The notes: a model not told the origin generated them from the sequence alone. A stretch of 64,000 nucleotides of DNA from an uncultured delta proteobacterium (GCA_963840855.1 CAWJBB010000083.1:1-64000); one strand, 5' to 3'; shown: positions 23,286 through 41,060, counted from the stretch's first letter. Numbers and translations are program-made.

Positions 23286-25898
23286 ATGGACGCTCGACCT
23301 AAAACAGTACGTGACATACTTCATACCGGCGACCAATACATAATCCCGCTGTTTCAGCGTTACTACTCTTGGCAAAAGGAACATTGGGATCGTCTGCGAA
23401 AAGACATCTGGGCGCTGATGGAGGACGAGTCGAAGCCTGTCCACTTTCTTGGTCCGCTGGTCTGTACGCCTACGTCTCATTTCCCAGGCTCAGTGCCTGC
23501 TTACCAACTGATTGACGGTCAGCAACGGCTTACAACGCTAACCTTGCTGCTTGCTGCACTTCGTAATGTCGCAATGTCGCGAGGCCTAACCAACTTGGCG
23601 GCCGAAGTTTCCGAGGATTATTTACTCCACAAGCGCAAGCAGGGTACGGAGCACTACAAAATTCTTCCCAGGCTGGGAGATCGCGAAGCTCTATCTGCGA
23701 TCATTGACGGCAATGATCTTTTTGCGCATATGGATAGCCAAATTTACGCTGCTCTAAAGTATTTTCACCGTCACGCTGAGCATTGGGCCCGTCATAGAGC
23801 TGAACAGAATCTACGTCACCTTTTGGATACGGTCACGCGGCGTCTGGCACTCGTCGTCGTGACGATAGACAGTGAAAGTCCATACGAAATATTTGAAAGT
23901 CTGAATTCCGCAGGCCTTCCACTGGAGGAAGCGGATCTTATTCGAAACTTTATCTTCATGCAGGTGCCTCTATCGAAGCAGCAGGAGTTCTTCGATCAGC
24001 ACTGGAGCGCGTTTGAAGATATGTTCGATGCGGTTGACGATCAGGAAGCTATTCCGATGACTCCTTTTTACAGGGACTATTTGATGAAAGATGGGCGCTA
24101 TTCAAAGGAAGATGCAACTTTCTTAGACTTTAAAGAGCATCAGAAACAAGCAAACCTTGCCCCTGAGCAGCAAGTTAAGGAACTTCTTCACTTCGCGACT
24201 TTAGATCTCATGTTGCGACGCCCGGAGGCTGTGACAAAGGATACCGTCTGTCGGTTACTCCGCCAAATTGAGGGCATGGAAATCTCGACGTCCTATCCGT
24301 TGCTGCTTAATCTTTTGGACCGCAATCATCGCGGCCAATTGAGCGATGGAGAGTTGGAAGGCTGCTTGCAGGATCTCGTTAGTTTTGTACTGCGCCGCTC
24401 AATTTGTGGAGAAACCACGCGTTCATACGGTCAGTGGTTCGTGGAAGCAATATCTGTGCTCCGCGATAATCCGCGGCACGATCTGCAGACCTATTGGTTG
24501 AATCGGCGCTGGCCGGATGATTCCGCGCTGAGGGATAGGTTGCGTGACTTTCCAATTTACCGGAGGGAAGGAAGAAAAGCACGAGTCATACTTGAGGCGA
24601 TCGAAGATAGTTATAAACACAAAGAGAAAGTAGATCTTCGCAGACTATCGATTGAACATGTAATGCCTCAAACCATTGGAAACAACTCTGCGGGGAGAAG
24701 TTGGAAAACTATGCTCGGAGATGGGTGGGAAGAGATCCACGAAAAATATCTTCACTCATTGGGTAACCTGACGTTGACGGGTTATAACCCAGATCTCAGT
24801 AACTCCAGCTTCGAGCGCAAAAAGGAATTATTACACGATAGCCATTTGGAGCTTAACAAGTGGTTTGATTCGCTAAAGTTTTGGACGGAAGAATCCATCA
24901 TAAAGCGCGCGGAAGGGCTCGCAGAAATCGTCGCCCGACTTTGGCCGATGCCTTCCTCCAGTATTCAGTACTCGCCGTCCCAGGAAGCCTTGCGTGAACC
25001 GGAAGGTCTGTCCGAGAGACAGAAAAAAGCTTTGGAATACTGGCGTCACCTGGATAGTCGCTTAGAGGAAAGAGGTATTCCCTCAGACATGATTGTTCCT
25101 AGGCCGTCAAATTGGTTATCCCTCGTTATTGGTACGACAGGCTCGGCCGAAATCCAGCTGACCTTTAATCAGCAGAGAAAGCAAGTGTCTGTAGGTCTCA
25201 ATTTGACGGGGGAAATCGGTGAGTCTATTGAAAGGCGTCTGTTGGACGAGAAAGAACAGATTGAGAAAGATTTAGGGTACACGCTCGAGTGGGAATCTGG
25301 TGACATCTACATCGCCGATGAAGGTATAGGGATTTGGGATCAAGAAGACTGGCCCATCCAGCATGATTGGATGGGAGATCATCTTGAAGACTATCTGCGG
25401 GTGTTCAAGCCTAGAGTGGTCAAGCTGGAGGAAGAAGTCCTACGTGATCCCGGGTTGCGGCGAAAAATTGAGAAGCGAGAGCGATTGATTGAGTACTGGA
25501 ACGCTTGTGCGATTGAACTCGCGGGGTCGCCATTGCGTTTCCGCGAGAGCGAACCGAATGCTGGCAGAATCTACTGTCGCTTCGAACAAGTCGACACCGG
25601 CATCTATTTTGGAACACAGTACTACGATTCTGATGGTGGCTGGATTTGCGTCTATTTTGGTGTGTCCAAGAAAGCAGGAAGGCGTCTACGTTCTATCTTC
25701 AAGGAACTGGTGGAAAGTCTTAGAGGGGAATTAGAAGCTCTCATGGGAGAGGAACTCGAATGGTCGGATCCCTATCTCTCGATTTATAAAGAGGCAAACA
25801 TCGAAGAAACGCAAGACTGGCCGCGGCAGCACAAGTGGATTCGAGAGAAAGGCGAAAAGCTTTTGAGGGAATTCACGAGGCGGCTAAACATCGACTGA
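23286..25898 (+). CDS. GmrSD-type (DUF262+DUF1524) restriction protein with two C-terminal DUF4268-like domains
   Basis: IPLFQRYYSW, LIDGQQRLTT, IFESLN, SIEHVMPQ, GNLTL..N; two 'EYW...LEW...DWP.QH.W' repeats. Confidence 0.9.
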   Translation: MDARPKTVRDILHTGDQYIIPLFQRYYSWQKEHWDRLRKDIWALMEDESKPVHFLGPLVCTPTSHFPGSVPAYQLIDGQQRLTTLTLLLAALRNVAMSRGLTNLAAEVSEDYLLHKRKQGTEHYKILPRLGDREALSAIIDGNDLFAHMDSQIYAALKYFHRHAEHWARHRAEQNLRHLLDTVTRRLALVVVTIDSESPYEIFESLNSAGLPLEEADLIRNFIFMQVPLSKQQEFFDQHWSAFEDMFDAVDDQEAIPMTPFYRDYLMKDGRYSKEDATFLDFKEHQKQANLAPEQQVKELLHFATLDLMLRRPEAVTKDTVCRLLRQIEGMEISTSYPLLLNLLDRNHRGQLSDGELEGCLQDLVSFVLRRSICGETTRSYGQWFVEAISVLRDNPRHDLQTYWLNRRWPDDSALRDRLRDFPIYRREGRKARVILEAIEDSYKHKEKVDLRRLSIEHVMPQTIGNNSAGRSWKTMLGDGWEEIHEKYLHSLGNLTLTGYNPDLSNSSFERKKELLHDSHLELNKWFDSLKFWTEESIIKRAEGLAEIVARLWPMPSSSIQYSPSQEALREPEGLSERQKKALEYWRHLDSRLEERGIPSDMIVPRPSNWLSLVIGTTGSAEIQLTFNQQRKQVSVGLNLTGEIGESIERRLLDEKEQIEKDLGYTLEWESGDIYIADEGIGIWDQEDWPIQHDWMGDHLEDYLRVFKPRVVKLEEEVLRDPGLRRKIEKRERLIEYWNACAIELAGSPLRFRESEPNAGRIYCRFEQVDTGIYFGTQYYDSDGGWICVYFGVSKKAGRRLRSIFKELVESLRGELEALMGEELEWSDPYLSIYKEANIEETQDWPRQHKWIREKGEKLLREFTRRLNID

Positions 25899-26468: not shown

Positions 26469-27066
26469 CTTCATAATTCCCTGCCGCCGAGCGGCGCCTG
26501 GGGTCGCCCACCCATTAGCAGGCAGGTCAACAGGCACAGACGTTCCCGTGAGAAATTTTTCTTATTCCCTTTTTCAATCCCTCGCGGAATATGTGATCCC
26601 CTGATGCTTACCAAAAACGGATCCCGTTCCAGACGTTCCAAATAGCCTGCCCTGAGTCCTATCGAAGAGGGGGTTACTTGGCCGAATCTGTAGGTGTCTG
26701 CATCTAGCTATCCAATTCCCACCGTGGATGGTTGCCACTCTCCTTAAAGAATCCGTGGAGATAACTTTCACTTATTCCAAGGTTCCAGTTGTCTCAGTTG
26801 TTCCAGTCGTCCCGCTCGCACCTCGCAACCAAACAACAGCAAACGTGAACCCTTGGCTGAGTTCCCTCATCGCCCGCGGGACCAACAGGAAGAACGAAGC
26901 CGGAGGAATCAAGTGGCGCTGTTCGGACTGCGGCTGCGCAGGATTCCAGAGCGGCTGCGCAGTTGTCGTCACCAAGGACGGAAAGCACCGGAAGCGTCTG
27001 ACTTCTACGTATCGACTAACTTGGTTAATGCTATTGGTCCTTGCCCGTGGCTTCTACGCTGGCCTG

Positions 27067-27321: not shown

Positions 27322-27384
27322 AGCATGACCTCACTCTGGTTGAACGGCTTGAACAGTTTTAAACGGTTCAAAACGTTTCGCGGG

Positions 27385-27400: not shown

Positions 27401-27451
27401 CCCCGTTTTCCAAACAGTCTGGCAAGAATCAAACTAACATAAAGGGGGAAT

Positions 27452-29061
27452 AAAGGGGACAGGCTACTTTTTCCACGTTGCTATCGCAGGCGGCTGTGTG
27501 ATAGACCCCTGCCATCGGTTGAAGGAATCTGAAGCGAGCAGTTGAAAATACGCTCGCTGCAAGGCCTGACTCTGCCAGCGACCCTCAAACAAAACATGGT
27601 GGCCCAATACATTCACTGGACAATCCCGCTCGGGATAAATTATTATGACGCCGGCGATGAATTTTGACGATTTCGTTCACACCGGACCTGGAACTCTTGC
27701 CGGGCGTTTCCTGCGGATGTTCTGGCAGCCGGTTTGTTGCTCCCATGAGCTTTCGGTTGCCCAAGCGCTGCCGATTCGGATCATGGATGAAGAGTTTACG
27801 CTCTATCGCGGCGAGAGCGGCGCGGCGCATTTAGTCGGCTATCGCTGCGCCCACCGCGGCACGCAACTCTCCGCCGGGTGGGTCGAGGGCGACTTTATCC
27901 GCTGTTTCTATCACGGTTGGAAATACGATGGCGCGGGACGATGCGTTGAGCAGCCAGCCGAAGCGGAACCCTTTGCGCCAAAGGTCCGCGTGCCTGCTTA
28001 TCCGGTGCAAGAATACCTCGGACTGATTTTCGCCTATTTTGGCGAGGGCGAGCCGCCGCCGTTGCCGCGTTACCCCAAGATGGAAAGCGCCGATATCTCC
28101 CTCGATGTCGCTGGACTCAGACGGATCTGCAACTACTTCAACAACGTCGAGAATTCATTGGATAGCGCGCATGTGCGCTTCGTGCACCGGCGCCACCGCG
28201 ATTCGGTGCAAGATCATATCGTGTTGGGCGATCCGACGATTACCGTCGAAGAATCCGAGTGGGGCGTCGAGCGCCATGCAAAATATCCCGACGGCAAGGA
28301 AGTCACCGTTTTTTTCGGCATGCCCAACATCAACTATACCAACGGTCAGGTGGTTGATCCGGAGATCAAGCGGGCCGACGTGATGTTATTTAAAGTTCCG
28401 GTAGACGATGAACGCCATATTCACTTCGAGGTGCGCGCCATCCCGCTCACAGGAGAGCGCGGACGGGTATGGATCCAAGAACGGCGGGAGATGCGGACAA
28501 AGGCGGAACTGGATCGGCCGGAGTTAGTCCGAGCCATCCTTGCCGGAAAACTTAGGCTCGACGATATCGATCCGAATCGCGTCGACTTCGTCATGCTCGA
28601 AGACGAAGTCGCGCAGACCGGTCAAGGCGCGATCGCCCCGCGCGGCAACGAACACCTCGGCCGCAGCGACCGCGGCGTGTTTCTACTGCGCAAGATTTGG
28701 GAGCGGGAGCTGAGAAATCTCAAAGAGGGTAGACCGCTCAAGCAGTGGGTTTATCGTCCGGAAATGGTGCCGACGTATCCGAAGGCGTAGGGTTTCGTGG
28801 TTGTGGGCGATGTGCGATTGAAACCGCCTAAAAGAAAGGAGATGCCTACGGGGGTGATATTTGCTATTCGTTAACCGAGGCTTTTCGAAAAACGAAAAGC
28901 AATTTCTTAAGGACTACGATCCTGCGAGCCCATAACTTTAGAAGGCCAATCAGACTGGCAGACGAAGATTGCAAGTCAGTTTGGACTTGAAAGCACCATG
29001 CGTTCACGGGGCCGACCCGCGCTGAGTGAAATGAGGAGATAAGACAAAAAAGTAGCCTGTC
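27452..29061 (+). mobile_element. Putative non-autonomous RAYT-type element carrying a Rieske gene
   Basis: Left end aaaggggacaggctacttt; RAYT C-terminal remnant (DWQTKIASQFGLESTMRSRGRP), then inverted end aaagtagcctgtc. Confidence 0.55.
27645..28790 (+). CDS. Rieske non-heme iron oxygenase alpha subunit (phthalate/vanillate-like)
   Basis: CAHRG...RCFYHGWKYD; ENSLDSAHVRFVH. Confidence 0.9.
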   Translation: MTPAMNFDDFVHTGPGTLAGRFLRMFWQPVCCSHELSVAQALPIRIMDEEFTLYRGESGAAHLVGYRCAHRGTQLSAGWVEGDFIRCFYHGWKYDGAGRCVEQPAEAEPFAPKVRVPAYPVQEYLGLIFAYFGEGEPPPLPRYPKMESADISLDVAGLRRICNYFNNVENSLDSAHVRFVHRRHRDSVQDHIVLGDPTITVEESEWGVERHAKYPDGKEVTVFFGMPNINYTNGQVVDPEIKRADVMLFKVPVDDERHIHFEVRAIPLTGERGRVWIQERREMRTKAELDRPELVRAILAGKLRLDDIDPNRVDFVMLEDEVAQTGQGAIAPRGNEHLGRSDRGVFLLRKIWERELRNLKEGRPLKQWVYRPEMVPTYPKA

Positions 29062-29962
29062 TTTCACGGCTTCTCTTACGGAGAGGAGTTGATTTATGAA
29101 GGATCGAAATGAGCGGTCACAGATAAAACTATGATCACAAATCGGCGGCCGGCGCTCGACAAATTACGCCGCGAATACGATAGCAGTCATCGCCTGGAGA
29201 AAATTCGCGCCCCGGCTTCTGCTAACTTGGCTCCCATGTTTGGCGCGCTTGAAGCGGCCAGGGATGCGGCAGCACCCGAACTAATGAAAAATGTCTGCAC
29301 GCGGTTTCTCGCTTCGCTTTCAGCCTTTTACGGCATTCCTTCGCCGAACTTAAAATTGCTCGGGCCTCGTCCGCATTCGACTTACGAAGGGCGCTTGGCC
29401 AATGAACTCTTCGGCGACTACCAGATCAAGGTTGCAAAAATTCGACTTTGGACGCGGACCCCAATGAAAAGGCAGTGGACATCGAGTAAGACGATATTGT
29501 CTACGCTTTGCCATGAATTCATGCACCACTTGGATGTGACTTCTCTCGGATTTCCAAACAGCTTTCATACCATCGGTTTTTACGAGCGGACCCACCGACT
29601 TTATCTTGCTGCCATGGGTCATCCCTACTATCCTCTTAAGTGGCGCCGGGTTGGCTTTGAAGGCCGGCAGATTATTGACTGGCAGGAGACAAAGCGACAC
29701 GGGCCGAAAGTCTTGGGGCGAAAGAAAGTGAGAGGGACCAGCTGGCAGCAGGTCAGACCAGCGCAAGCCATTGATTCACAGGAATAGGCACGAGGCGAGA
29801 GGCAACAGGCAATAGTAGGACAAGAACATTTCAGACTGCTCACTATAAGAAATACACGATGCCGCGCGTCAATCGCCATTTTCTACCTGGTCACATCTGG
29901 CACATCACTGACCGCTGTCATCAGCAGGCATTTCTACTGAAATTTGCGCGCGACCGCCGCCG
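28985..29962 (+). repeat. ~980-bp duplication, copy 1
   Basis: Near-identical to 36381-37359. Confidence 0.95.
29131..29787 (+). CDS. HExxH zinc metallopeptidase-like protein (SprT/WLM/YgjP-like)
   Basis: TLCHEFMHHLD...SFHTIGFY. Confidence 0.7.
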   Translation: MITNRRPALDKLRREYDSSHRLEKIRAPASANLAPMFGALEAARDAAAPELMKNVCTRFLASLSAFYGIPSPNLKLLGPRPHSTYEGRLANELFGDYQIKVAKIRLWTRTPMKRQWTSSKTILSTLCHEFMHHLDVTSLGFPNSFHTIGFYERTHRLYLAAMGHPYYPLKWRRVGFEGRQIIDWQETKRHGPKVLGRKKVRGTSWQQVRPAQAIDSQE

Positions 29963-30662
29963 CTATATGCACTGGATTTTCGAGGCAAAAAAACGCTTCG
30001 GTCTGTCCGTGCTCAACTATATGATCACCTCGAACCACGTTCATCTTTTGATCAAAGACACCGGGCCGAACGTCATCGCCGACAGTATGCAGTTAATTGC
30101 CGGCCGCACCGCCCAGGAATACAATCAGCGCAAAGATCGGCAGGGAGCGTTTTGGGAGGACCGCTACCATGCAACTGCAATTGAGGCCAACGAGCACTTG
30201 CACCGTTGCCTCATCTACATTGATCTAAACATGGTTCGCGCCGGTGTGGTAAGCCATGCTGGAGAGTGGGCGCACAGCGGTTATCGTGAGATACAGGAGC
30301 CGCCGAAGCGTTACGCGGTGATCGATCTAGAGGGGCTGGCGGCCATGTGTGGCTTTACGAATCCGAGAGATTTTCAAAGAGGACACCGCGAATGGGTCGA
30401 GCAAGTGATGGAAAACGGCGGTGCTCCGCGCGAGGACCGCTGGTCTGAAGCGCTCGCCGTCGGGAGCCTGACTTTTGTCGAGAGGGTCAAAAACGATCTT
30501 GGCGTCAAAGCCGCGCATCGGGAAGTGCTGGCAGCTGACGGAACTTATGCATTGCACGAGCCCAGCGAAGCTTACACTCGCAATTTGACCGGTGAAAATG
30601 AGGCTCTAAGTCCGCAAAATACTCTCCCGTGGAATGAAAGCATCGAAAACCCAAATACATAG
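29859..30662 (+). CDS. REP-associated tyrosine transposase (RAYT, Y1 HUH)
   Basis: WHITDRCH, SNHVHLL (HUH), GAFWEDRY, YIDLNMVRAG; followed by ggtccgacccc. Confidence 0.9.
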   Translation: MPRVNRHFLPGHIWHITDRCHQQAFLLKFARDRRRYMHWIFEAKKRFGLSVLNYMITSNHVHLLIKDTGPNVIADSMQLIAGRTAQEYNQRKDRQGAFWEDRYHATAIEANEHLHRCLIYIDLNMVRAGVVSHAGEWAHSGYREIQEPPKRYAVIDLEGLAAMCGFTNPRDFQRGHREWVEQVMENGGAPREDRWSEALAVGSLTFVERVKNDLGVKAAHREVLAADGTYALHEPSEAYTRNLTGENEALSPQNTLPWNESIENPNT

Positions 30663-30687
30663 CCCGGTCCGACCCCGCGAAACAAAT

Positions 30688-30939
30688 TACCGTGCCAAGG
30701 AGGCCCTCACCGAGCTATTCCAGGAAGCTAAGACCAAGAACACCCACATCATCGTGAAGCGCATCGTCACGGACATCGATGACATCGTAAAGAAGGTGCG
30801 CTTTGATGGCTGGCAAGCCACGACGCAAGGCGAGCGGTTGGTGCAGAGGGAACTCCGCCGCGCACTTCTGAAATACAAGCTGCACACGGATCAGGAATTG
30901 TTCGATAAAGCGCATGGGTATATACGGCAATACTACTAA
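30688..30939 (+). pseudogene. C-terminal fragment of type I restriction subunit HsdR
   Basis: ALTELF...IVTDIDDIVKKVRFDGWQAT..GER.V...DQELFDKAHGYIRQYY. Confidence 0.75.
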
Positions 30940-31047
30940 GGAAAAAAACAGAAATCAGCTAGTCGTAAAGAGTGAGGCGCCCAAATTTTTGGGTTGCGAT
31001 TTGAAGTCGTGAAGTTGCAACCCTTTCAGTTCTAAAAGGGTCGCTAA

Positions 31048-31374
31048 ATGGAAGACGATCGTATTAATCTAAAACAACCTTGGAAACAACTTGATGAGGC
31101 CACACGAAAACATATATTCCTGTGTATTTTTCGCGACAATCGAAACCTGATCACTCGGCTGTCGCGCGAAATGCATGGTTACACTCCCAAGGGGCTCGCC
31201 AGACGGCCGTCAACAATTGTTTCACGTATAGACGACCTGCTCTTTTCCCTCGACGGTGGTTTGTATGCTAGAGATTTTTTTAGATCCTACTTTGTTAATT
31301 GCGAGCCCACAATCAATGATCTCTATCTAATCCACTTCAAGCGCATCGCTAGAGAAGATCCGTCCAAAGTTTAA
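31048..31374 (+). CDS. Hypothetical protein (possibly truncated, low GC)
   Basis: 108-aa ATG ORF. Confidence 0.45.
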   Translation: MEDDRINLKQPWKQLDEATRKHIFLCIFRDNRNLITRLSREMHGYTPKGLARRPSTIVSRIDDLLFSLDGGLYARDFFRSYFVNCEPTINDLYLIHFKRIAREDPSKV

Positions 31375-31384
31375 GGAGGTTAAA

Positions 31385-31861
31385 ATGAAACGAAAAGCCT
31401 TGGTGCTGATTGCAAGGATTGTGTCAGTGATTACTCTCAGGATACGTGCCGTCGTGACCTTGTGCGTCGTCCTGATGTTGTCCCTGGGGCCGTTGGCCAC
31501 GCCCGTCTGGAGCGAACCGTCCCGGTCTTTCCTCGGCCTGTGGCAGGGTATCGATCCCGAAGACGGCTCGGGCGTCCTCTACTCGTTCGCCGACAACGAT
31601 CGTGACGGTGTGATCGAGATCACCGGGCGAGAAACGTTCTTCACGGCATGCGGCACGCCCGGTGGCGACGGCGTGGTCAACGGCACCGGCGTTGTTGGGA
31701 GCGGGGGCCTGCTCGTGGCGGAGGTGCTGCTCAAGTGCCGTCCCGGCCCGGAGCTCCCCGCCACGGCCACCTTTCAACTGATCGCGCGGGACGACGTCCT
31801 GATCCACCCGGATCCGGGGCTCGCGCGGTCCATCACTCTCCATCGGGTGAGCCAGCGCTAG
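31385..31861 (+). CDS. Secreted hypothetical protein
   Basis: RBS aaggagg; signal peptide; high GC3. Confidence 0.7.
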   Translation: MKRKALVLIARIVSVITLRIRAVVTLCVVLMLSLGPLATPVWSEPSRSFLGLWQGIDPEDGSGVLYSFADNDRDGVIEITGRETFFTACGTPGGDGVVNGTGVVGSGGLLVAEVLLKCRPGPELPATATFQLIARDDVLIHPDPGLARSITLHRVSQR

Positions 31862-31979
31862 GCCGACGACCTGGGTCACCTCGTCGAACGTCATGACTGC
31901 CGCACCTCCGCGGCTGCTGCTGGTTGATCCCGTTCCCGCCGTTCCCGTTCGCCGGCCGCTCTGCCCGGGGGCCGACCGC

Positions 31980-32140
31980 GGGTCGGACCAAGGCAACTTC
32001 TTGATTTGACAATATAACATGGCGTAAAAGGCATCGTTTGCTTCGCCGGTTCAAGGTTCAATGTTCGGGGCGGCCGGTCCGGGGTCGGACCAAAGCAACT
32101 TCTTGATTTAACAACATAAGATCGCGTAAAAAGCATTGTT
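31980..32140 (+). repeat. Two ~60-bp direct repeats starting GGGTCGGACC (RAYT-terminus-like)
   Basis: gggtcggaccaa.gcaacttcttgattt.acaa at 31980 and 32082; reverse complement of ggtccgacccc at the RAYT 3' end. Confidence 0.75.
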
Positions 32141-32439
32141 TAAGAGCTTAGAAGGCATTTTTTGAAGGCGAAAAGTGACCTCTAAGAAAAACGATGCCGC
32201 GCGCAAACCGTCACTTCCTGCCACATCACGCACCAACGTTGCACCTAGTCCAAACGTTCCAGTCGTTCAACCGCGTCGCGGAGCCCTGTCTGAGCTTAGC
32301 GAAGGGTTCAAGGCGTTATCCGGACAACAGCCATTCAAGGTTCGAACGCTAGCCGAGATTTCTTTGAGGGTGCCTCCTGTGCTACAAGCGCGTCAGTTCC
32401 GAGAAATCTGCATCGACTAACCGCAACAAGGAGTCAACG

Positions 32440-32928
32440 ATGAAATACCGGCTTCTAATCCTGGCCTTTGTATTGTCGATCCCGCCTTTCTTATTGAACT
32501 CGACTGTCGTTAGCTCGCGCGATACGGGAGCACAAGGCGGCTGTTTCCCCGGCACTTATCTTGTAGTCGAAGGCAGTGGCACTCAAAGCCTCTGGACACT
32601 GTCACACGACGGCGGGTTTCAGGTTACAAGCTCCGCCGAAAGGGCGTTTGGCTTCAGCCACATACAAGGTGTCTGGAAGAAAACCGGCGCTCGGGACGCG
32701 AAGGCGAGGGGCCTCGACTTCAACTTTAACGAGACTCCCGTGAACGGCGGTGTTCCACCGTCACAGATCGCCAGACTCGATATCGTAATGAGGTTCGCTG
32801 AAAAGTGTGAAGGAATGGAAGGGAGCTTCGAGTTGCGCGGTTTCAATCCCAATGATGATCCTTTGGACTCGAACAGCCCAGCCGCCGCTTCTGATACTTT
32901 CTTTGGGCGACGGGTCAGCATTGATTAG
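32440..32928 (+). CDS. Secreted hypothetical protein
   Basis: RBS aaggag; signal peptide; beta-rich. Confidence 0.7.
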   Translation: MKYRLLILAFVLSIPPFLLNSTVVSSRDTGAQGGCFPGTYLVVEGSGTQSLWTLSHDGGFQVTSSAERAFGFSHIQGVWKKTGARDAKARGLDFNFNETPVNGGVPPSQIARLDIVMRFAEKCEGMEGSFELRGFNPNDDPLDSNSPAAASDTFFGRRVSID

Positions 32929-33012
32929 TTCTCAGGTTGCGGTGTCAATAGAACCCGCCCCGGGCGGCTCCGCCCCAGCCCCGGGCTGGCAGCGTGCTGA
33001 CGAGGAGGGGCG

Positions 33013-33136
33013 ATGGACGAATTCCTGAAGGCCGCCATCGCCGAGGCGGAGGCCGGGCTGGCTGAGGGGGCATCCCGATCGGCTCCGTCCTCGTCCATGA
33101 GGGTCAGATCATCGGTCGTGGGCACAACCGCCGCGT
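33013..33136 (+). pseudogene. N-terminal fragment of a cytosine/nucleoside deaminase
   Basis: MDEFLKAAIAEAEAGLAEG/GIPIGSVLVHEGQIIGRGHNRR, cut at a RAYT-like terminus. Confidence 0.75.
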
Positions 33137-33143
33137 GGGAATT

Positions 33144-33305
33144 AAAGGGGACAGGCTACTTTTCTCCCGTTGCGATCGCATGTAGCGGTGTGATAGACGC
33201 TGCTGATGCCGAGAATCCCGCGTGGGCAGCAAGCTGGTTTTGTTTATCATGTGATCAACCGAGGAAATGGTCGCGCGACGATCTTTCATAAAGCTCAAGA
33301 CTATT
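33144..33305 (+). pseudogene. RAYT left terminus plus 5' fragment (second RAYT type)
   Basis: aaaggggacaggctacttt, then MPRIPRGQQAGFVYHVINRGNGRATIFHKAQDY from 33206. Confidence 0.8.
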
Positions 33306-33439
33306 TTGGCTTGCGCCTGTTCCAAACGTTCCAGAAGCCTGCCCTGAGACCTGTATGATGGATGTTAGGTGTAACCACAAGTCCTCTTTAGCGAGTATAG
33401 TGATTCATCAAATCGCCATTGAGCGAAGGAGGACAACAG

Positions 33440-34516
33440 ATGAACAGCAAAGCGTTTATTCCCCGCGACTACGACGTGTTTGCGGGACTGGATGTGGGCA
33501 AGAAAAGTATCTCGGTGACCTTTACCAATCAGCAAGGGTTTATTCGCTCCTTGCGCGTGCCGTATAGCGCGGAGCATCTTGTGAACCACGTGCGTAAACA
33601 TTTTCCCGATCAGAAAGTGGCCTTTGCCTACGAGGCGGGACCGACGGGCTACGGCTTGTACGATGGGATTGTGGCTCAAGATTACCCGTGCCTGATCGCT
33701 TCGCCATCGATGATCCCCAAAGCGCCCGGACAAAGAGTGAAGACCAATCGGCTCGACAGTCGAGGCATTTCGGAGAATCTTCGTGGCGGACAGCTCAAGA
33801 GCATTCATGTCCCCGCTGTCCTGTACCGTGAGCTGCGCCATTTGACTCAGCTGCGCGACACCTTTGTCAGCGCGATGGTGGCGATGAAGCAGCGCATCAA
33901 GTCGCTGTTGCTTATGGAAGGGCTGGAGTTTCCCCCGGCCCCCGCCGGTAGTCAGTGGTCGTTCATGGTGAAGGCTAAACTGAGAAAGCTTCCCTGTTCT
34001 TCGACCGTGCGTTTTGAGCTTGATCAGTTGCTTGACAGTCTGGAGTTCAACGAGAAGCAGATCGTTAAGACAACCCAACAGATCCGCCGCTTGTGTCAGA
34101 ACGATGCCGAATTGTCCCAGTGTATAAAGTACGTGATGAGCGTGTCCGGGATTGGCCAGATTGTGGCCAGTCAGCTTTTGGCTAGGATCGGCGATTGGCG
34201 TGAGCTGAGAAACGTGCGCCAACTGGGAGCCTTTCTCGGCTTGGTCCCTACCGAGAACTCCACCGGAGAGCGAACCGATCGAGGATCGATCACTCACAGC
34301 GGAGACCCGCGGCTGAGAAGCAAACTCATCCAAGCCGCCTGGTCGGCGATCCGAAAAGACGGTGAGCTGAGGGAATTTTTCCGGGCGGTGTGCCAGAGCC
34401 ATGCGCGCCCGGTGGCGTCGCGGGTGGCCATTGTGGCGGTGGCCAGAAAACTCACGGTACTGATTTCGGTGGTCTTGATGGAACAAAGACCCTATGTAGT
34501 GAGGAAAAAAGTTTAA
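33440..34516 (+). CDS. IS110-family DEDD recombinase
   Basis: GLDVGK, YEAGPTG, KTNRLDS, GLVPTENSTG, AVARKL. Confidence 0.95.
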   Translation: MNSKAFIPRDYDVFAGLDVGKKSISVTFTNQQGFIRSLRVPYSAEHLVNHVRKHFPDQKVAFAYEAGPTGYGLYDGIVAQDYPCLIASPSMIPKAPGQRVKTNRLDSRGISENLRGGQLKSIHVPAVLYRELRHLTQLRDTFVSAMVAMKQRIKSLLLMEGLEFPPAPAGSQWSFMVKAKLRKLPCSSTVRFELDQLLDSLEFNEKQIVKTTQQIRRLCQNDAELSQCIKYVMSVSGIGQIVASQLLARIGDWRELRNVRQLGAFLGLVPTENSTGERTDRGSITHSGDPRLRSKLIQAAWSAIRKDGELREFFRAVCQSHARPVASRVAIVAVARKLTVLISVVLMEQRPYVVRKKV

Positions 34517-34519
34517 TCG

Positions 34520-34715
34520 GCTCCTTTGACCCAAGAGGAGACCGTGCCCCAGGGAACGCCTCGACGATAGACAGAACCGGGAGAGACAAACTCCTGACGG
34601 TTCGATCCATGAGATAGAGAGCCCGGGGCCGAGTGCCTTAGAGAGGGGCGCATGCCAAGTCAGTGTGACGGCCATGGTGCCGTGCCACGTATAGCAGTCA
34701 GTCTCTCTTGGGTGG
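34520..34715 (+). ncRNA. Putative seek/bridge RNA of IS110 #1
   Basis: cgatagac (reverse complement of target right side), hairpin, ccatgag; caagtc, hairpin, atagcag (donor). Confidence 0.65.
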
Positions 34716-34964
34716 GGAAGGAAAAGAGTCATAAGAAAATAAGAGGGCGGTGCCGTGACTTGACATCCACATAGCAGTCTATCGAAGGGTTCAATCGCTG
34801 CGCTCCGTTCATCACGGGGGGATCAGTCCGTTCGAGCCGTTCCAATCGTTCAACCGCTTTGCTCCGTTCAAAACGTTTCCGGAATTCTTTAAACTTCGAA
34901 AGGTTCAACGAACACAAGTTGGGGGACGCGTCGCCATTGAACCGCTCACTCTAAGACACAACCG

Positions 34965-35030
34965 ATGCCGCGCGCGAATCGCCATTTTCTACCCGGTCAC
35001 CCATGGCACATCACTCACCGCTGCTATCAG
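34965..35030 (+). pseudogene. RAYT 5' fragment (same type as 29859)
   Basis: MPRANRHFLPGHPWHITHRCYQ. Confidence 0.8.
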
Positions 35031-35138
35031 AAGAAGTTTGTCGCGGTCGGCTGCACCGGTTTGACATCGATAGCGCAGTCTCTTAGCATTGGTTTGGATT
35101 ATCAATGATGGTCGAAATCATTTAGAGAGGGTTGGCTT

Positions 35139-35423
35139 ATGACAGAGTCGGCAGAGAAAATAGATCATCCCTATATCGTTTCTCGGGCGGACTACTGCGG
35201 CGGCAGTCCTGTGATCAAAGGCACGAAATTTCCCGTTCGCTCAGTCGTCAACTACGTTCTTCGCCAAGGCATCTCACCTGAAGAGTTGGTTGGAGAGTTC
35301 TCCCATCTAACCCTCGCGCAAGTATACTACGCGCTTTCGTACTACTATGATCACAAAGAAGCGGTTGACCAGGATTTTCAGGAGAACTCGCAAGAGAATC
35401 ACAGACCCGTGACCGGGGTCTAA
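35139..35423 (+). CDS. DUF433 antitoxin
   Basis: CGGSPVIKGTKFPV...LTLAQVYYALSYYYDH. Confidence 0.9.
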   Translation: MTESAEKIDHPYIVSRADYCGGSPVIKGTKFPVRSVVNYVLRQGISPEELVGEFSHLTLAQVYYALSYYYDHKEAVDQDFQENSQENHRPVTGV

Positions 35424-35519
35424 TGGCCAAGATTACCCTGCTGTTGGATGAGGATGTCCGTCCGATACTGGGCGAAATTCTCCGGCAGCGAGGGTACGAT
35501 GCCGTGCATACGAGCCATT
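35423..35519 (+). pseudogene. Truncated DUF5615 PIN-like toxin
   Basis: MAKITLLLDEDVRPILGEILRQRGYDAVH, cut at ggggccaggtcttgcaa. Confidence 0.75.
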
Positions 35520-35710
35520 GGGGCCAGGTCTTGCAATCCAACATTCCATTTAGCCTCGGTGTCTACTTGCGATAGTGGCGTTATTAAATCGATCTGTTCA
35601 ACCGGACAAGACGGGCTTAACCCGCCAACACAAAATCCGTGGAGACGACTTTCATACTCCGGAAGGGCTTTCGCGGCATGCGGAAACGCATCCTTCTAAC
35701 CCGCACCAAG

Positions 35711-35738
35711 TTGACTTGTTAGGCATGGTTATTATAAT
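35711..35738 (+). promoter_or_regulatory. Sigma70 promoter of the TA operon
   Basis: TTGACT-16-TATAAT. Confidence 0.55.
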
Positions 35739-35758
35739 GGCCATAATTGAGGCCTGGT

Positions 35759-36028
35759 ATGAAAGACATTTTCACCTATATACCCATTAGCAAGGCCAAG
35801 AGTGAACTTTTGGATATTATTCGCCGGCTGGAAAGCGTCAACGACGCCGTGGCGGTGACCAAGAACGGAGTTCCGGCTGCGGTGATTCTCAGCATGGAGA
35901 AGTACGAGGGGCTGCTGGAGACACTTGACATTTTGAGTGATGAGAAGACCATGAAATCGCTACGGACCTCAATGCGTCAGGCTCGTCGGGGAAAGTGGCT
36001 GAAGCATGAAGAGGTGTTTGGTCGTTGA
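35759..36028 (+). CDS. Phd/YefM antitoxin
   Basis: ISKAKSEL...VTKNGVPAAVILS..YEGLLETLDIL. Confidence 0.9.
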   Translation: MKDIFTYIPISKAKSELLDIIRRLESVNDAVAVTKNGVPAAVILSMEKYEGLLETLDILSDEKTMKSLRTSMRQARRGKWLKHEEVFGR

Positions 36029-36315
36029 AGAAGACCGCTTGCCGTTTCACCCCGGAAGCGGCCCGGCTAATCGCTACACTCCCGCCCGAAATCAAAAAGC
36101 TTGTTCGCTCTTCTATTGATACACTTCTGGAGAAGCCGCACACCGGTTCCGAACTGACCGGAGAGCTTGAGGGTTATCGCTCGCTCAAAGCAAAGAGATA
36201 CCGGATCATTTACCGTCTAAATGACAGTGAAACCAGTGTCGAAATATATCTTGTCGGTCATCGGCGGGATGTTTACGATACCCTTCGGTCTCTGCTCCTC
36301 GAGGTTAAACAATAA
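36025..36315 (+). CDS. RelE/ParE toxin
   Basis: LTGELEGYRSLKAKRYRIIY...VGHRRDVY. Confidence 0.9.
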   Translation: MKKTACRFTPEAARLIATLPPEIKKLVRSSIDTLLEKPHTGSELTGELEGYRSLKAKRYRIIYRLNDSETSVEIYLVGHRRDVYDTLRSLLLEVKQ

Positions 36316-36380
36316 CCGGGAGTTGAAAGCTCTCGAATCTGTGAGGAGATTTTGGGTTCGAAGGTCGCAAATCAGTTTAA

Positions 36381-37359
36381 ACTTGAAAGTACCATGCGTC
36401 CACGGGGCCGACCCGCGCTGAGTGAAATGAGGAGATAAGACAAAAAAGTAGCCTGTCTTTCACGGCTTCTCTTACGGAGAGGAGTTGATTTATGAAGGAT
36501 CGAAATGAGCGGTCACAGATAAAACTATGATCACAAATCGGCGGCCGGCGCTCGACAAATTACGCCGCGAATACGATAGCAGTCATCGCCTGGAGAAAAT
36601 TCGCGCCCCGGCTTCTGCTAACTTGGCTCCCATGTTTGGCGCGCTTGAAGCGGCCAGGGATGCGGCAGCACCCGAACTAATGAAAAATGTCTGCACGCGG
36701 TTTCTCGCTTCGCTTTCAGCCTTTTACGGCATTCCTTCGCCGAACTTAAAATTGCTCGGGCCTCGTCCGCATTCGACTCACGAAGGGCGCTTGGCCAATG
36801 AACTCTTCGGCGACTACCAGATCAAGGTTGCAAAAATTCGACTTTGGACGCGGACCCCAATGAAAAGGCAGTGGACATCGAGTAAGACGATATTGTCTAC
36901 GCTTTGCCATGAATTCATGCACCACTTGGATGTGACTTCTCTTGGATTTCCAAACAGCTTTCATACCATCGGTTTTTACGAGCGGACCCACCGACTTTAT
37001 CTTGCTGCCATGGGTCATCCCTACTATCCTCTTAAGTGGCGCCGGGTTGGCTTTGAAGGCCGGCAGATTATTGACTGGCAGGAGACAAAGCGACACGGGC
37101 CGAAAGTCTTGGGGCGAAAGAAAGTGAGAGGGACCAGCTGGCAGCAGGTCGGACCAGCGCAAGCCATTGATTCACAGGAATAGGCACGAGGCGAGAGGCA
37201 ACAGGCAACAGTAGGACAAGAACATTTCAGACTGCTCACTTATAAGAAATACACGATGCCGCGCGCGAATCGCCATTTTCTGCCTGGTCACATCTGGCAC
37301 ATCACTCACCGCCGCCATCAGCAGGCATTTCTACTGAAATTTGCGCGCGACCGCCGCCG
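36381..37359 (+). repeat. ~980-bp duplication, copy 2 (RAYT 3' remnant, HExxH gene, RAYT 5' fragment)
   Basis: Near-identical to 28985-29962; RAYT truncated after ~35 codons. Confidence 0.95.
36527..37183 (+). CDS. HExxH metallopeptidase-like protein, copy 2
   Basis: Two amino-acid differences from 29131-29787. Confidence 0.7.
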   Translation: MITNRRPALDKLRREYDSSHRLEKIRAPASANLAPMFGALEAARDAAAPELMKNVCTRFLASLSAFYGIPSPNLKLLGPRPHSTHEGRLANELFGDYQIKVAKIRLWTRTPMKRQWTSSKTILSTLCHEFMHHLDVTSLGFPNSFHTIGFYERTHRLYLAAMGHPYYPLKWRRVGFEGRQIIDWQETKRHGPKVLGRKKVRGTSWQQVGPAQAIDSQE

Positions 37360-37389
37360 TTGCGCCTCGGGCAGACTGTAGGGTCAATC

Positions 37390-37986
37390 ATGGCAAAAAT
37401 CTTGGATCCGCACGGCCTTCACGACTGGAGCGCCGAAGAATATGTCCATGATTGGGCAACGCGCCAGGATCGCTACGAGGACGAGCGACGCCCGCAATTT
37501 CAAATGATTGCAGATGCGATTCCTTTTAGCAGGGACGCGTCGATTCAGATTCTGGACGTGGGCGCCGGTTACGGCGCCCTAACCCAATTTCTCTTGGAAG
37601 AGTTTCCGAACGCTACAGCCCTCTGCCAGGATGGCTCGGACGAGATGGCCAAGCTCGGTCGCCGGCGCATGGCCAAATGGAAAGGGCGGTTTGATTATGT
37701 GATTGCGGATTTCAGTAAGCGGGGCTGGAACCGGGCGATTCATGGATCCTTCGATGCGGTCGTTTCAACCATCGCCATTCACAACGTTCGTGTTCCCGAC
37801 ATCATCGAGTCCATCTATAAAGACGTGTTTCAACTCGTAAAGCCGGGCGGCTGTTTTCTCAATCTGGACCTGGTTTTTGTTCCTTTGGCAAAACAACTCG
37901 GTTGGTTGCGGGCTGCCGGATTCAGCGATGTCAAATCGTATTGGCAAGAGCGGAGAGGAGCGTTGTTCGGGGGGAGGAAGATTTAG
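37390..37986 (+). CDS. Class I SAM-dependent methyltransferase
   Basis: ILDVGAGYG, FDAVVS, VKPGG. Confidence 0.9.
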   Translation: MAKILDPHGLHDWSAEEYVHDWATRQDRYEDERRPQFQMIADAIPFSRDASIQILDVGAGYGALTQFLLEEFPNATALCQDGSDEMAKLGRRRMAKWKGRFDYVIADFSKRGWNRAIHGSFDAVVSTIAIHNVRVPDIIESIYKDVFQLVKPGGCFLNLDLVFVPLAKQLGWLRAAGFSDVKSYWQERRGALFGGRKI

Positions 37987-38499: not shown

Positions 38500-38901
38500 C
38501 TCCTCTTCTTGGAGGCGCGTGCCGGTCGCCTGCACGACGCATCGAATCATCAGCGGAAGCACGGCTACAGGGTCAGGTCTTGCAATGCAACATCCCTACA
38601 AAGATTTCGTTGTCTACTTGCGATAGTTTCGTTCTTAAGATCGATCCATTCAAAAAGACACCAGGCTTCTGCGGGAATCAATTTTTCGTAGGGCCGAATG
38701 CAAAATGACTCGGTTTGGCCGGGAGAGCGATCTTCGACGAATGCTGAACGTCAGAAAAGATGAAGGCTTCAGTCCGGACTTTTCTGGCGGTGAAAAAGGA
38801 CTTAATCGACTGTAGATTACGGGACCAGGTAGTATAATAATGACCTGGTAGCCAGGGTCGTGTGAATGCGAAGATATTTAATGCCACTTTAGGAGGCGAC
38901 G

Positions 38902-39171
38902 ATGACGTATAAAGGTGTCGCTAAGGGAAAAATAATCGAACTCGAAGAGGCTCTTCCGTATTCCGACGGGCAAGCTGTTAGCGTTTCGGTGGAGGTCTTG
39001 CATCCAGACCTTCGGCCCGGGTCGGCGCCAGCGATCCTTAGGGTGATGCGCAGTTTGCCAGATCTTAACCCGGATGACGTTGACGAATTGGAGCAATTGA
39101 TTAGGCAAGGACGATTGCCTGTGCGCATGCAGGGCGAGTTTGAAAAAGACGAAGCGGACAACGGGCGATGA
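38902..39171 (+). CDS. Putative antitoxin (DUF104-like N-terminus)
   Basis: YKGVAKGKIIELEEALP..DGQAVSV; overlaps the vapC-like start. Confidence 0.65.
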   Translation: MTYKGVAKGKIIELEEALPYSDGQAVSVSVEVLHPDLRPGSAPAILRVMRSLPDLNPDDVDELEQLIRQGRLPVRMQGEFEKDEADNGR

Positions 39172-39575
39172 TGTTTTTGCTGGACACCAACGCCTTCAGT
39201 GACTTGATGAGGAAGCATTCGAAGCTAGATGCTCGCATGACCTCTCTCGCTGCTGCGGATAGAATTGTGATTTGCACGGTTGTTCGGGGTGAAATTCGTT
39301 ATGGTATTGAGCAGCTTCCGCAAAGCAAGCGCCGTCAAGATCTGGAAGGTCAGGCGGGACCTCTATTCGCTGTTATTCCGTGCGAGTCAGTTCCTGAGGC
39401 GGCGGGCGATCATTATGCGAAGATTAAGCTAACACGCCAGCAAAAAGGATTGGTTTTGGATGAAAATGATCTTTGGATTGCTGCGACCGCTTTGGCATTA
39501 GATGCCGTGCTGATAACCCGCGATAGCGACTTCCAACAGATCCAGGGGTTGTTCGTCAACGATTGGACAGTATAG
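39168..39575 (+). CDS. vapC: VapC PIN-domain toxin
   Basis: LLDTN, GEIRYG, NDLWIAATA, LITRDSDF. Confidence 0.9.
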   Translation: MMFLLDTNAFSDLMRKHSKLDARMTSLAAADRIVICTVVRGEIRYGIEQLPQSKRRQDLEGQAGPLFAVIPCESVPEAAGDHYAKIKLTRQQKGLVLDENDLWIAATALALDAVLITRDSDFQQIQGLFVNDWTV

Positions 39576-41059
39576 CAGCCCGTGGTGAAAGTCGAGCATG
39601 TTTTAGTTGTAGCCGGTGATAAATAATCGATATGTTCGGTGTGTCGTAGTAAAGTGTTCCGCATGGCGATGGGACAAAGAACACAACAAGAGCAAGTTGG
39701 GATGTGGGTAACGGTTAGCGAGCTACCGCGGTCGGTGAGCCACCCGTTTTACGAGAAACTCAATCGGCTGTTGGCCGAGCATGGGTTCGACGACTTTGTC
39801 GAGGCGCAGTGCCGGCCGTTCTATGCCGAGAAGATGGGGCGGCCCAGTCTAGCACCGGGGCAATACTTTCGGCTTTTGTTACTTGGGTATTTCGAGGGGC
39901 TGGACTCGGAGCGCGCCATTGCGTGGCGAGCGGCGGACTCCTTGGGAGTGCGCAGGTTTCTCGGGCTGGGGCTGACCGAGGCGGCGCCGGATCACTCCAC
40001 GATATCGCGGACGCGGCGCCTGATCGACCTGGACACCCATCGGGCGGTGTTCAGATGGGTTCTTCAGTGTCTGGGCATCGCCGGCCTGGTCAAGGGGAAA
40101 ACGATTGCGATAGACGCCACGACGCTCGAAGCGAATGCGGCCCTGCGCAGCATCGTGCGCCGCGACACCGGGGAGAGCTATCACGAGTTTTTGACCAAGC
40201 TGGCTCAGGCCTCTGGCATTGAGACCCCCACGCGGGAGGATCTCGCTAAGCTGGATCGCAAGCGCAAGAAGAAAGGGTCGAACAAGGACTGGGAACATCC
40301 GCACGACCCCGACGCGCGCATCACCAAGATGAAGGACGGGCGCACCCATTTAGCGCACAAAGCCGAGCATGCGGTGGACCTGGAGACCGGTGCGATCGTG
40401 GCCGTCACGCTACAGGAGGCCGATCAGGGCGATACCACAACGATCCAGACCACGCTGCCCGAAGCGGTCGAGCAGTTGGAAGCCGTAGCCGCCGTCACCG
40501 ACGATGTGGTGAGGACGGGGGAGGAACTGGTCGCCGACAAGGGCTATCACAGCAAGCAAACCGTGCTCGATGTACAGTCCCTGGGACTGCGCAGCTACAT
40601 CAGCGAACCGGATCGGGGTCGGCAGCACTGGATCGATCAGCACGCCGAGCGCGACGCAGTGTATGCCAATCGGCGGCGCATCGAGGGTGAGCGCGGGCAG
40701 CAGTTGATGCGGCGACGGGGTGAGTTGTTGGAGCGACCCAATGCTCTCCTCTATGATACCGGCGGGATGCGGCGGACTCATCTGCGTGGGCACGGCAACA
40801 TTCTCAAACGGCTGCTCGTGCACGTGGCGGCCTGCAATCTGGGCCTGTGGATGCGCACATTGACGGGCATTGGAACGCCACGCGGCCTGCAGGACAGCCT
40901 GGCCATCGTACTGGCTTTCTTTTTTACTCTGTGGGGAGTCCTGCGCAACCGAGTAACCGCGCATCGCCGCCGAGAACTCGATCTGAGACTAATTGCGATC
41001 CCAAGTTACCGCCTCGCACAGATCGCGTCATGTGAAAAACGGACTTGTACCACGGGCTG
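39576..41059 (+). mobile_element. IS1182/IS5-like insertion sequence
   Basis: IRs cagcccgtggtgaaagtc / gacttgtaccacgggctg; 4-bp TSD atag. Confidence 0.9.
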
Positions 41060-41060
41060 A
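39663..41060 (+). CDS. DUF772+DDE transposase
   Basis: GRPSL...SER, PDHSTISR, IDATTLEANA, ADKGY. Confidence 0.9.
   Translation: MAMGQRTQQEQVGMWVTVSELPRSVSHPFYEKLNRLLAEHGFDDFVEAQCRPFYAEKMGRPSLAPGQYFRLLLLGYFEGLDSERAIAWRAADSLGVRRFLGLGLTEAAPDHSTISRTRRLIDLDTHRAVFRWVLQCLGIAGLVKGKTIAIDATTLEANAALRSIVRRDTGESYHEFLTKLAQASGIETPTREDLAKLDRKRKKKGSNKDWEHPHDPDARITKMKDGRTHLAHKAEHAVDLETGAIVAVTLQEADQGDTTTIQTTLPEAVEQLEAVAAVTDDVVRTGEELVADKGYHSKQTVLDVQSLGLRSYISEPDRGRQHWIDQHAERDAVYANRRRIEGERGQQLMRRRGELLERPNALLYDTGGMRRTHLRGHGNILKRLLVHVAACNLGLWMRTLTGIGTPRGLQDSLAIVLAFFFTLWGVLRNRVTAHRRRELDLRLIAIPSYRLAQIASCEKRTCTTG

Follow-up and report, generated by a model that had tools for sequence, protein, structure and literature searches.

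Small insertion sequences of the IS200/IS605 kind encode only a Y1 transposase, and their ends are distinct subterminal hairpins. Their copies lie in one orientation, insertion being into the lagging-strand template, and they leave miniature PATE/MITE-like derivatives which are internally deleted and keep both ends. Integrons are cassette arrays of short genes with attC sites and a tyrosine recombinase of the IntI type, and the IS110 family comprises RNA-guided insertion sequences which target repeats, including REP and attC. Here we describe a region from an uncultured delta proteobacterium (GCA_963840855.1) in which the ends of transposons encoding REP-associated tyrosine transposases (RAYTs, of the Y1 class of HUH enzymes) accompany genes of other kinds. 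The window, by which we mean the whole stretch of 64,000 nucleotides analysed (CAWJBB010000083.1:1-64000), is contig C83 of a 7.1-Mb draft genome (G000) in 93 contigs, with 56% G+C, 94% completeness and an estimated contamination of 8.3%. A sequence-only reading of positions 27452 to 37359 had recognized two consecutive modules, built in the same order around different cargo, and had proposed that hollowed RAYT elements serve as cassette frames which capture genes. That interpretation is partly supported by our analysis; the region is a graveyard of broken Y1/RAYT-type transposons, with leftover ends around ordinary genes.

Two groups of described structures stand closest to this locus. Di Nocera et al. 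(2013) reported the consensus GGGGWSAS in inverted repeats around "TIRYT" genes, and the structures were named TIRtrons (PMC3733652). The tetranucleotide GTAG is required by the REP enzyme of E. coli (PMC3333891), the REPtrons of that species are said not to transpose as a unit, and RAYTs are said to be typically single-copy (PMC3333891, PMC5581495). Published descriptions have RAYT and TIRYT enzymes mobilizing short repeats or their own elements and nothing else; full-text searches of the literature, read as listings and passages, gave no report of their carrying genes (the figures and additional files of PMC3733652 may list the repeat described below).

The RAYT1 element and its terminal repeat

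The motif GACAGGCTACTTT occurs four times in the window, at 27458 and 33150 on the plus strand and at 29049-29061 and 36445-36457 on the minus strand (0.95 expected by chance; none of 100 shuffles reached four), and a longer 13-mer, GGGGACAGGCTAC, is found in the window at 27455 and 33147 only, i.e. at both left ends. The left ends reported earlier at 27452 and 33144, and the right ends extending to 29061 and 36457, can be read straight from the sequence. The motif, GGGGACAGGCTACTTT, is the terminal inverted repeat of an IS-like element of about 740 bp and of TIRtron/REPtron type, consisting of the left repeat, a leader of some 55 nt, a gene for a Y1 transposase of about 215 amino acids (RAYT1) and a right repeat starting just past the stop codon. 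It follows from this layout that the "scaffold" of the two modules is an ordinary Y1 element of the TIRtron/REPtron kind. In what follows, a left end with its leader is termed a head, and the 3' codons with their right repeat a tail.

In the 7.1 Mb of G000 the 10-mer GACAGGCTAC has nine matches, eight of which stand in the extended repeat context: four in the window, three on contig C40 (both ends of a 350-bp miniature and a solo left end) and one on C41. Allowing up to one mismatch, a 16-mer was found in 24 of 41 related genomes, G000 counted, and the same pattern read backwards gave at most one match per genome. Named genome records contain the exact 16-mer in at least 138 stretches, and these come from many phyla, including Aminicenantes, Nitrospirota, Myxococcota, Clostridia, Elusimicrobia, TA06 and Bipolaricaulota. 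Eighty of these stretches were fetched for pair spacing, and yielded 33 inward-facing doublets 26-151 nt apart, a count inflated by the overlap of some loci, as well as pairs 676-1,016 nt apart. Four distinct pairs of wider spacing (L107/108, L115, L118 and L144/145), formed by inverted 16-mers in records of TA06, Bipolaricaulota, Bacillota and one unclassified bacterium, enclose RAYT genes which are 57-59% identical to the RAYT1 query in uninterrupted tblastn alignments. One doublet forms a hairpin in which two positions are mismatched (z = -3.59, a value reached by none of 200 shuffles), and the folding of single ends from the window is no better than that of shuffled sequences (z = -1.39, -0.72 and +0.21); the single repeat is not a palindrome, so that each end represents half a hairpin. 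The sequence GGGGACAG, which fits GGGGWSAS, is found inverted at both ends in G104, L107, L115 and L144. No common motif was seen by eye in the sequences 5' of eight heads, and hence no fixed short target beside the left end.

In the related genome G104 this element has multiplied as a discrete unit. Five copies of about 740 bp, one of them partial, are 92-97% alike with homology limited to the interval from repeat to repeat, and they lie in one orientation within 15 kb among unrelated metabolic and defence genes. Both of the two copies that were read encode a near-full RAYT1 of about 215 amino acids with an HFH motif and with frameshifts; they match Pfam Y1_Tnp (PF01797) at 2.8e-17 and 3.3e-17, and the N-terminal part scores 80.7 bits with NF047646 (REP-associated tyrosine transposases; cut-off 80). 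The element also leaves internally deleted miniature copies. One of 350 bp at C40 103419-103779 retains both ends and has codon ~55 joined to the last ~25 codons, another of 695 bp with both ends is found in G017 (C280), and a hollow copy of about 380 bp in G103. No complete hollow element was found twice.

An intact RAYT1 was not found in G000, in which the nearest intact-looking relative is 45% identical. Across 90 family genomes the first 45 residues of RAYT1 gave 25 matches in 16 genomes, every one in an open frame of 44-189 amino acids and none intact (the counts for the 16-mer in relatives, for RAYT1 stubs and for Rieske matches include the unpublished genomes G015, G009 or G067, on which no structural claim depends). 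Using tblastn with four queries, namely the N- and C-terminal parts of RAYT1, a second type present in the window (RAYT2) and a third type of about 313 amino acids, we located 36 loci in G000, mostly fragments, 17 of which lie in two islands at 79.7-107.8 kb of C40 and 28.9-41.7 kb of the window. At 41580-41744 on the minus strand of the window is a further RAYT1-like C-terminal remnant, 51% identical over 55 amino acids.

Truncated RAYT genes adjoin repeats of the GTTCCA type, RAYT1 at codon 33 and RAYT2 at about codons 12, 17, 18 and 128, the last three of these breaks being found in metagenome contigs only (joints at 29909, 30241 and 37310). After each RAYT2 stub in the window (32194, 34965 and 37256) an intact gene on the same strand comes next. 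Arrays of 9-nt units (GTTCAA/GTTCCA-NNN), often inverted, lie at 19360-19414, 27340-27379, 32239-32279, 33311-33334 and 34782-34875; the "filler" which follows RAYT stubs is of the same kind, and genome-wide there are 464 overlapping matches against none for a reversed control. A subtype ending in CGCTGCGCTCCGTTCAA is present on both sides of a toxin-antitoxin pair in the related genome G045. We considered whether these arrays are the repeats of RAYT genes of about 300 amino acids and rejected this, as they are mostly absent from the flanks of nine Y1 loci, one of which (C40:79766) does have such repeats downstream.

Origin of the two apparent frames

Pfam profiles were run on 20 + 47 ORFs (open reading frames) of the window, and NCBIfam models were also used. 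All the parts that had been listed, i.e. the short motif, the 5' and 3' remnants of RAYT1, the HExxH genes, RAYT2 and the cargo, were found in their places, and those described here read on the plus strand. Head 1 (27444-27513) comprises the left terminal repeat (27452-27470) and the RAYT1 leader as far as the AT of the start codon; over 62 nt it matches head 2 at 84% identity, and its left edge is the exact start of homology with other genomes. The first cargo is a Rieske protein (27645-28790, PF00355 1.9e-19), beyond which tail 1 (28936-29077) holds the last 32 codons of RAYT1 (28944-29039), the right repeat (29049-29061) and 16 nt to the outer edge of the element. A HExxH protein of 218 amino acids follows (29131-29787, with its second copy at 36527-37183), for which there was a weak WLM match only (E 0.0013, below the cut-off) and none in NCBIfam. 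RAYT2, of the second type, is an open Y1 transposase frame of 267 amino acids (29859-30662, PF01797 6.6e-11), scoring 67.7 bits with NF047646 (REP_Tyr_transpos), under its cut-off of 80.

The second module begins with a 211-bp segment (33137-33347) composed of the left repeat (33144-33162), the leader, RAYT1 codons 1-33 (33206-33304) and the start of the filler. Copies of this head 2 module in G045 (two), L236, L262 and L283 show 95-97% identity, and the left flanks differ at each of four copies compared. In the filler lies an IS110-family insertion sequence (33345-34779; transposase 33419-34516, PF01548/PF02371, NF033542 1.4e-60), followed at 34965-35509 by a RAYT2 stub of 26 codons, a DUF433 gene (35139-35423, PF04255) and the first ~29 codons of a DUF5615 gene. 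The next 964 bp (35510-36473), block I3, stand in place of 307 bp of a simpler allele and contain a "Y" repeat (35521-35601), Phd (35747-36028), a ParE/RelE-type toxin (36025-36315, Pfam) and tail 2 (36359-36457, 26 codons and right repeat). The second cargo is as had been proposed (IS110, DUF433 and a Phd-RelE pair), with the truncated DUF5615 gene in addition, and both the 33 5' codons and the 26 3' codons (36358-36435) of RAYT1 are there. RAYT2, open at 29859, is cut after 35 codons at 37256 (37256-37360) and is followed by a SAM (S-adenosylmethionine) methyltransferase gene (37360-37986), a junction which is also present in C40.

The order of parts does recur, as the sequence-only reading had it, although its right side does not constitute two independent cases. 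One duplicated block, noted earlier at about 980 bp, holds the tail with its right repeat, the HExxH gene and the opening 35 codons of RAYT2; 28963-29962 and 36359-37359 are 98.2% identical over 1,001 bp. A third copy (C40 83097-83981, 98.9%) is without a tail and starts at the equivalent of 29078/36474, just outside the right repeat. Upstream of it, C40 carries the RAYT2 stub and DUF433 (82227-82789, 97.3% identity), with a DUF5615 gene that is complete; the HExxH gene comes 50 nt later. The DUF5615 gene of the window breaks off at about codon 29, where the 964 bp of repeat, Phd, ParE and tail 2 replace 307 bp; since a whole gene cannot descend from a truncated one, the form in the window is the derived one.

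Simpler alleles are found in the metagenome contigs L236 and L262, which read head 1-Rieske, head 2-33 codons-filler-RAYT2 stub-DUF433-DUF5615, and HExxH, with DUF5615 intact and with no IS110, no Phd-ParE and no tail. The joints were also checked in contigs of four runs from four studies. Joints free of IS110 occur in three of the four runs and the C40-type joint at 35509 in all four, two of them with 308 letters between. Position 28811/28814 is joined directly to 33135/33137 in three of the four runs and in all three true metagenome homologues (these were identified with an 18-mer from the right end of the Rieske unit, for which 80 of 105 stretches were fetched and 77 of the 80 were chance matches). 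As 28814 adjoins head 2 also in a diverged G045 copy (81%), the 4,322 bp of 28815-33136, including tail 1, are extra in the window. This block, I1, is missing from the simpler alleles, as the contig joints in runs and metagenome homologues indicate, and it contains a spacer, tail 1, HExxH copy 1, RAYT2, three small ORFs, repeats, a RAYT2 stub of about 12 codons (32194-32232, followed by GTTCCA-type filler), a 162-amino acid ORF and a deaminase fragment. Because the simpler alleles are without right ends, IS110 and Phd-ParE, the head-to-tail frames are secondary juxtapositions. We also looked in the 121-nt spacer (28815-28935) for a degenerate head, with which tail 1 would have formed a miniature element of its own, and rejected it; local alignments to three heads were equalled or beaten by 383, 567 and 870 of 1,000 shuffles, and MAFFT gave no alignment.

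The proposal that hollow RAYT1 frames, each a head with an inverted tail, acquire cargo and travel as units through the action of a RAYT in trans now appears highly improbable. Parts of it stand: the ends are true Y1 ends, hollow two-ended elements exist, genes do lie between the remnants, and one left-end-plus-Rieske unit has fixed ends. Block I3, moreover, has a head-like repeat of RAYT type at one edge and a RAYT1 tail at the other, and represents a derived insertion. In G045 there is also a structure, 1.7 kb in all, of a head, a toxin-antitoxin pair, most of RAYT1 and a mutated right repeat in which the exact 10-mer is not matched (it is 90% identical to window 28948-29057). The order here is RAYT1 codons 1-33, filler, DUF433-DUF5615, filler, and RAYT1 from codon ~55 to the end, the DUF433 being only 29.6% identical to that of the window and the pair having GTTCCA-type repeats on either side. 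Since the pair sits inside an otherwise nearly whole RAYT1, it represents an insertion which disrupts the transposase gene, and demonstrates that other DNA can insert into this gene. In the window the homology of the Rieske unit stops short of the tail, and the two tails are one duplication. No cargo-bearing head-to-tail unit was found twice; the same cargo with both element ends was not found at two or more sites, and module 2 was not seen elsewhere as a unit. As a control, two of these repeats lie 1,528 bp from each other in a Clostridia record and enclose a 462-amino acid ORF, by eye a TolC-like outer-membrane efflux gene, and pairs can therefore enclose genes without capture.

The IS110 element is present in four genome copies at least 99.8% identical (that of the window and three others), and its site is empty in G045 and in three of the four runs. 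Three of the four copies have similar flanks (...CTGCCC and TATCGAAGG to the left and right of the element), and an unoccupied look-alike of the target lies at 26636-26662. The IS110 of the window is accordingly a recent insertion into the filler.

Could the 1-kb duplication or block I1 be a chimeric join at repeats in a draft assembly from a community? The 93 contigs and the estimated contamination of G000 favour such an artefact, no run contains more than 44% of the words of the stretch, several alternative natural joins occur at exactly these points, and one G045 contig ends inside a head, from which it follows that such repeats break assemblies. We nevertheless regard an artefact as improbable, because the junction 28814|28815 lies outside any repeat, where a chimeric join would not be expected, the two 1-kb copies are distinguished by about 18 positions as well as by their flanks, and a contig from another study spans ParE into tail 2 (35858-36415).

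The Rieske cassette and the history of the island

The 1,371 bp at 27444-28814 comprise head 1, a 140-nt 5' region, the coding sequence 27645-28790 and 24 nt. This unit is 98.8% identical to G045:C7 and 99.1% to L236, the homology extending from 27444/27447 to 28814/28817 and ending 122 nt before the tail; it is without a tail in G045 and in all three metagenome contigs. Other Rieske matches, in 54 of the 90 family genomes, are 65-81% identical and cover the coding part only, except for a second G045 copy. The same two ends are found in three flank contexts. In the window the unit is preceded by ...CATAAA and followed by the spacer and tail; in G045 the preceding letters are ...AACGCT, and on the other side come 110 nt and then a segment which in G017 follows a RAYT1 right end; and in L236 it is between a segment we call flankL and head 2. 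In G045 flankL is joined directly to a head, which constitutes an empty site, the unit being found 1.18 kb upstream. A comparison of L236 with G045 gives 99.5% identity for the unit and 94.2% for flankL. Its right end is not the right repeat of the element, and no repeat or significant hairpin was found there. For the G045 copy no empty site was found in four related genomes, in which only the coding part and dispersed repeats matched. To judge from these alleles, the left end plus the Rieske gene behaves as a small, discrete movable cassette which lacks a transposase and has a left end only.

We think it probable, on balance, that the region as a whole is a nest of decayed Y1 (HUH) transposon copies in a hypervariable island, the remnants of which were later shuffled by ordinary processes, so that the frames are accidental juxtapositions. 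Copies of RAYT1, RAYT2 and the third type would have accumulated in the island and decayed through internal deletion and insertions, and one head would have become fused to the Rieske gene. The starting point may have been the simpler allele, i.e. head 1-Rieske, then head 2-stub-filler-RAYT2 stub-DUF433-DUF5615, then HExxH-RAYT2 stub-methyltransferase. Recombination or conversion between paralogous RAYT-rich loci, for which heads, tails and HExxH copies would supply the homology, could then have introduced blocks I1 and I3 and generated the 1-kb duplication, and IS110 would have landed in the filler afterwards. Candidates for the movement of the Rieske unit would be Y1 cleavage and joining in trans, or recombination at heads.

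Several facts weigh against this history. The Rieske unit has fixed ends in its three contexts and is 99.5% identical where its flank is 94.2%, which random rearrangement leaves unexplained and which implies that a process specific to sites or ends is at work. Across genera the head 2 module, a pseudogene stub, is 95-97% identical next to diverged Rieske copies of 81-82%, which suggests either recent spread or constraint. Left edges of heads are recurrent points of breakage or insertion, as with the Rieske unit (flankL|head) and block I1 (Rieske|head 2). We infer the order of events from alleles of other organisms and not from this lineage, the junction 28814|28815 was seen in this assembly and in no other data set, and a draft of 93 contigs with 8% estimated contamination may include some chimerism.

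These same facts bear on a reading in which the left end is a functional site, a gene with one head being excised and inserted at other heads or sites; we consider it unlikely. The agent would be single-strand cleavage and joining by a Y1 enzyme in trans, or recombination of heads, giving integron-like arrays exchanged between genera, and of this too we are doubtful. The identity of the unit among G000, G045 and L236 (98.8-99.5%, against 65-81% for the other family matches) speaks for it, as does the comparison of flankL|unit|head 2 in L236 with flankL|head in G045, which amounts to an occupied/empty pair together with a second site. The right end of the unit adjoins a head in the diverged G045 copy, in all three metagenome contigs and in three of the four runs, and in G045, G092 and G103 heads or N-terminal stubs of RAYT1 are repeated at intervals of a few kb, all facing the same way. 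In vitro, the E. coli enzyme TnpAREP cleaves single strands that carry REPs and recombines them (PMC3333891). However, there is one such cassette only, and two of its three contexts lack a head after the unit, the right end of which is devoid of a repeat or significant hairpin. The sequences 5' of heads are not conserved, and the inner junctions of head and cargo vary (start codon, codon 33, codon 55, +22 and +43). Loss by recombination between direct head repeats explains part of the facts on heads and the Rieske unit, and accounts for the empty site equally well; finally, the intact cognate enzyme was found neither in G000 nor in the 90 family genomes. That TIRtron-type left ends are portable boundaries of transposase-less gene cassettes, re-inserted often directly 5' of another head by a Y1 enzyme acting in trans on single-stranded DNA, with the Rieske unit as the first case, is therefore put forward as a conjecture which is more probably wrong than right by a good measure.

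Surrounding features and comparison with known systems

Between 26000 and 40000 no match to known RNA families was obtained at E up to 0.1, and a scan with the sigma-70 consensus found no promoter site within head 1 or head 2. Within block I1, two 73-nt direct repeats (31967-32039 and 32069-32141, 84%) with a GC-rich hairpin, GGCCGACCGCGGGTCGGACC, are related to a 36-nt sequence that lies upstream of RAYT2, at the 3' end of either HExxH gene, and are possibly the end repeat of RAYT2 itself. The 162-amino acid ORF (32440-32928) has no family match; its DNA is 87% identical to a gene about 1 kb from the miniature RAYT1 of G103, which is of a different genus, and it appears to belong to a shared variable gene pool. 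The ORF at 33013-33136, by eye the start of a nucleoside/nucleotide deaminase-like protein (Pfam gave no family), runs into the left edge of head 2 and appears to have been cut off by the element or by rearrangement.

An 80-nt repeat beginning GGGYCAGGTCTTGCAAT is present at 35521-35601 and 38570-38653 (80% alike), in both cases 12-15 nt past the point where C40 homology stops. It resembles sequence about 45 nt upstream of RAYT genes of about 320 amino acids on C85, C1 and C82 (GGGTCAGGC.TGC), and is possibly the left end of the third RAYT type. A 21-nt repeat, AATCCGTGGAGA..CTTTCA, at 26750-26770, 35634-35654 and about 80.96 kb of C40, forms the left edge of the Phd-ParE block, to judge by loose ends and joints of metagenome runs, and on C40 is followed by GTTCCA filler. 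To the right of the modules an antitoxin-like ORF and PIN toxin (38888-39575, 92% to G045) and a segment at 41077-41547 (81%) are separated by an IS5-like DDE transposase gene (39639-41060); in G045 they are contiguous and come after a head 2 module. Just upstream of the modules (20824-25898) are defence-type genes, namely two HNH proteins and a GmrSD-family enzyme with a DUF4268 tail. Housekeeping-type Pfam matches (NMT1, MmgE/PrpD and amidohydrolase 2) flank the variable stretch, and are also seen near the arrays of G045 and G104.

The window serves as a worked example of how decay, duplication and recombination generate misleading "frames", and it offers one testable candidate, a left end fused to a gene and moved as a unit between sites and genera. 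If the movement of the Rieske unit were enzyme-mediated, it would be a new route of gene exchange by way of single-strand HUH chemistry. Should left ends prove, against our expectation, to bound cassettes generally, integron-like arrays would be exchanging metabolic and toxin-antitoxin genes among genera of soil bacteria.

As in integron arrays, the genes here are short, mostly on one strand and include toxin-antitoxin pairs, a recombination-prone repeat recurs, and the content varies between relatives. Here, however, the repeat is a transposon end and one unit only has cassette-like fixed ends; there was no Phage_integrase match (integron integrase or tyrosine recombinase) among the 20 + 47 ORFs, and attC was not searched for with a model. 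The IS110 of the window sits in repeated sequence with similar flanks at three of four copies, as is expected of its family, but it is a passenger and not part of the RAYT scaffold. With the IS200/IS605 group the RAYT1 element shares the possession of a Y1 gene only, multiple copies in the same orientation with identical discrete ends (G104), and miniatures keeping both ends; it differs in that its ends are inverted repeats, with no conserved target beside the left one.

The likeness to REPtrons and to REPIN-RAYT systems, as far as the cited portions of the literature describe them, lies in an enzyme of the RAYT clade (NF047646), in inverted GTAG repeats flanking the gene and in hairpin doublets elsewhere (PMC3333891, PMC5581495, PMC3116915, PMC3337134). 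By comparison, the single repeat here is not a palindrome and has eight copies in G000 rather than hundreds, and there are five discrete element copies in G104 and 36 RAYT-related tblastn loci in G000. TIRtrons resemble the element in having a RAYT-like Y1 gene between terminal inverted repeats with GGGGWSAS (here GGGGACAG), of which gene the window keeps only 33 + 32/26 codons, in the occurrence of the repeats also as dimers and small families, and in the presence of several such genes or repeats per genome (PMC3733652). What sets the present elements apart from the TIRtrons, in so far as the consulted part of PMC3733652 describes them, are the multiple copies with discrete ends in G104, the breakage of nearly all copies in the window, and a left end that forms a movable unit with the metabolic gene fused to it.

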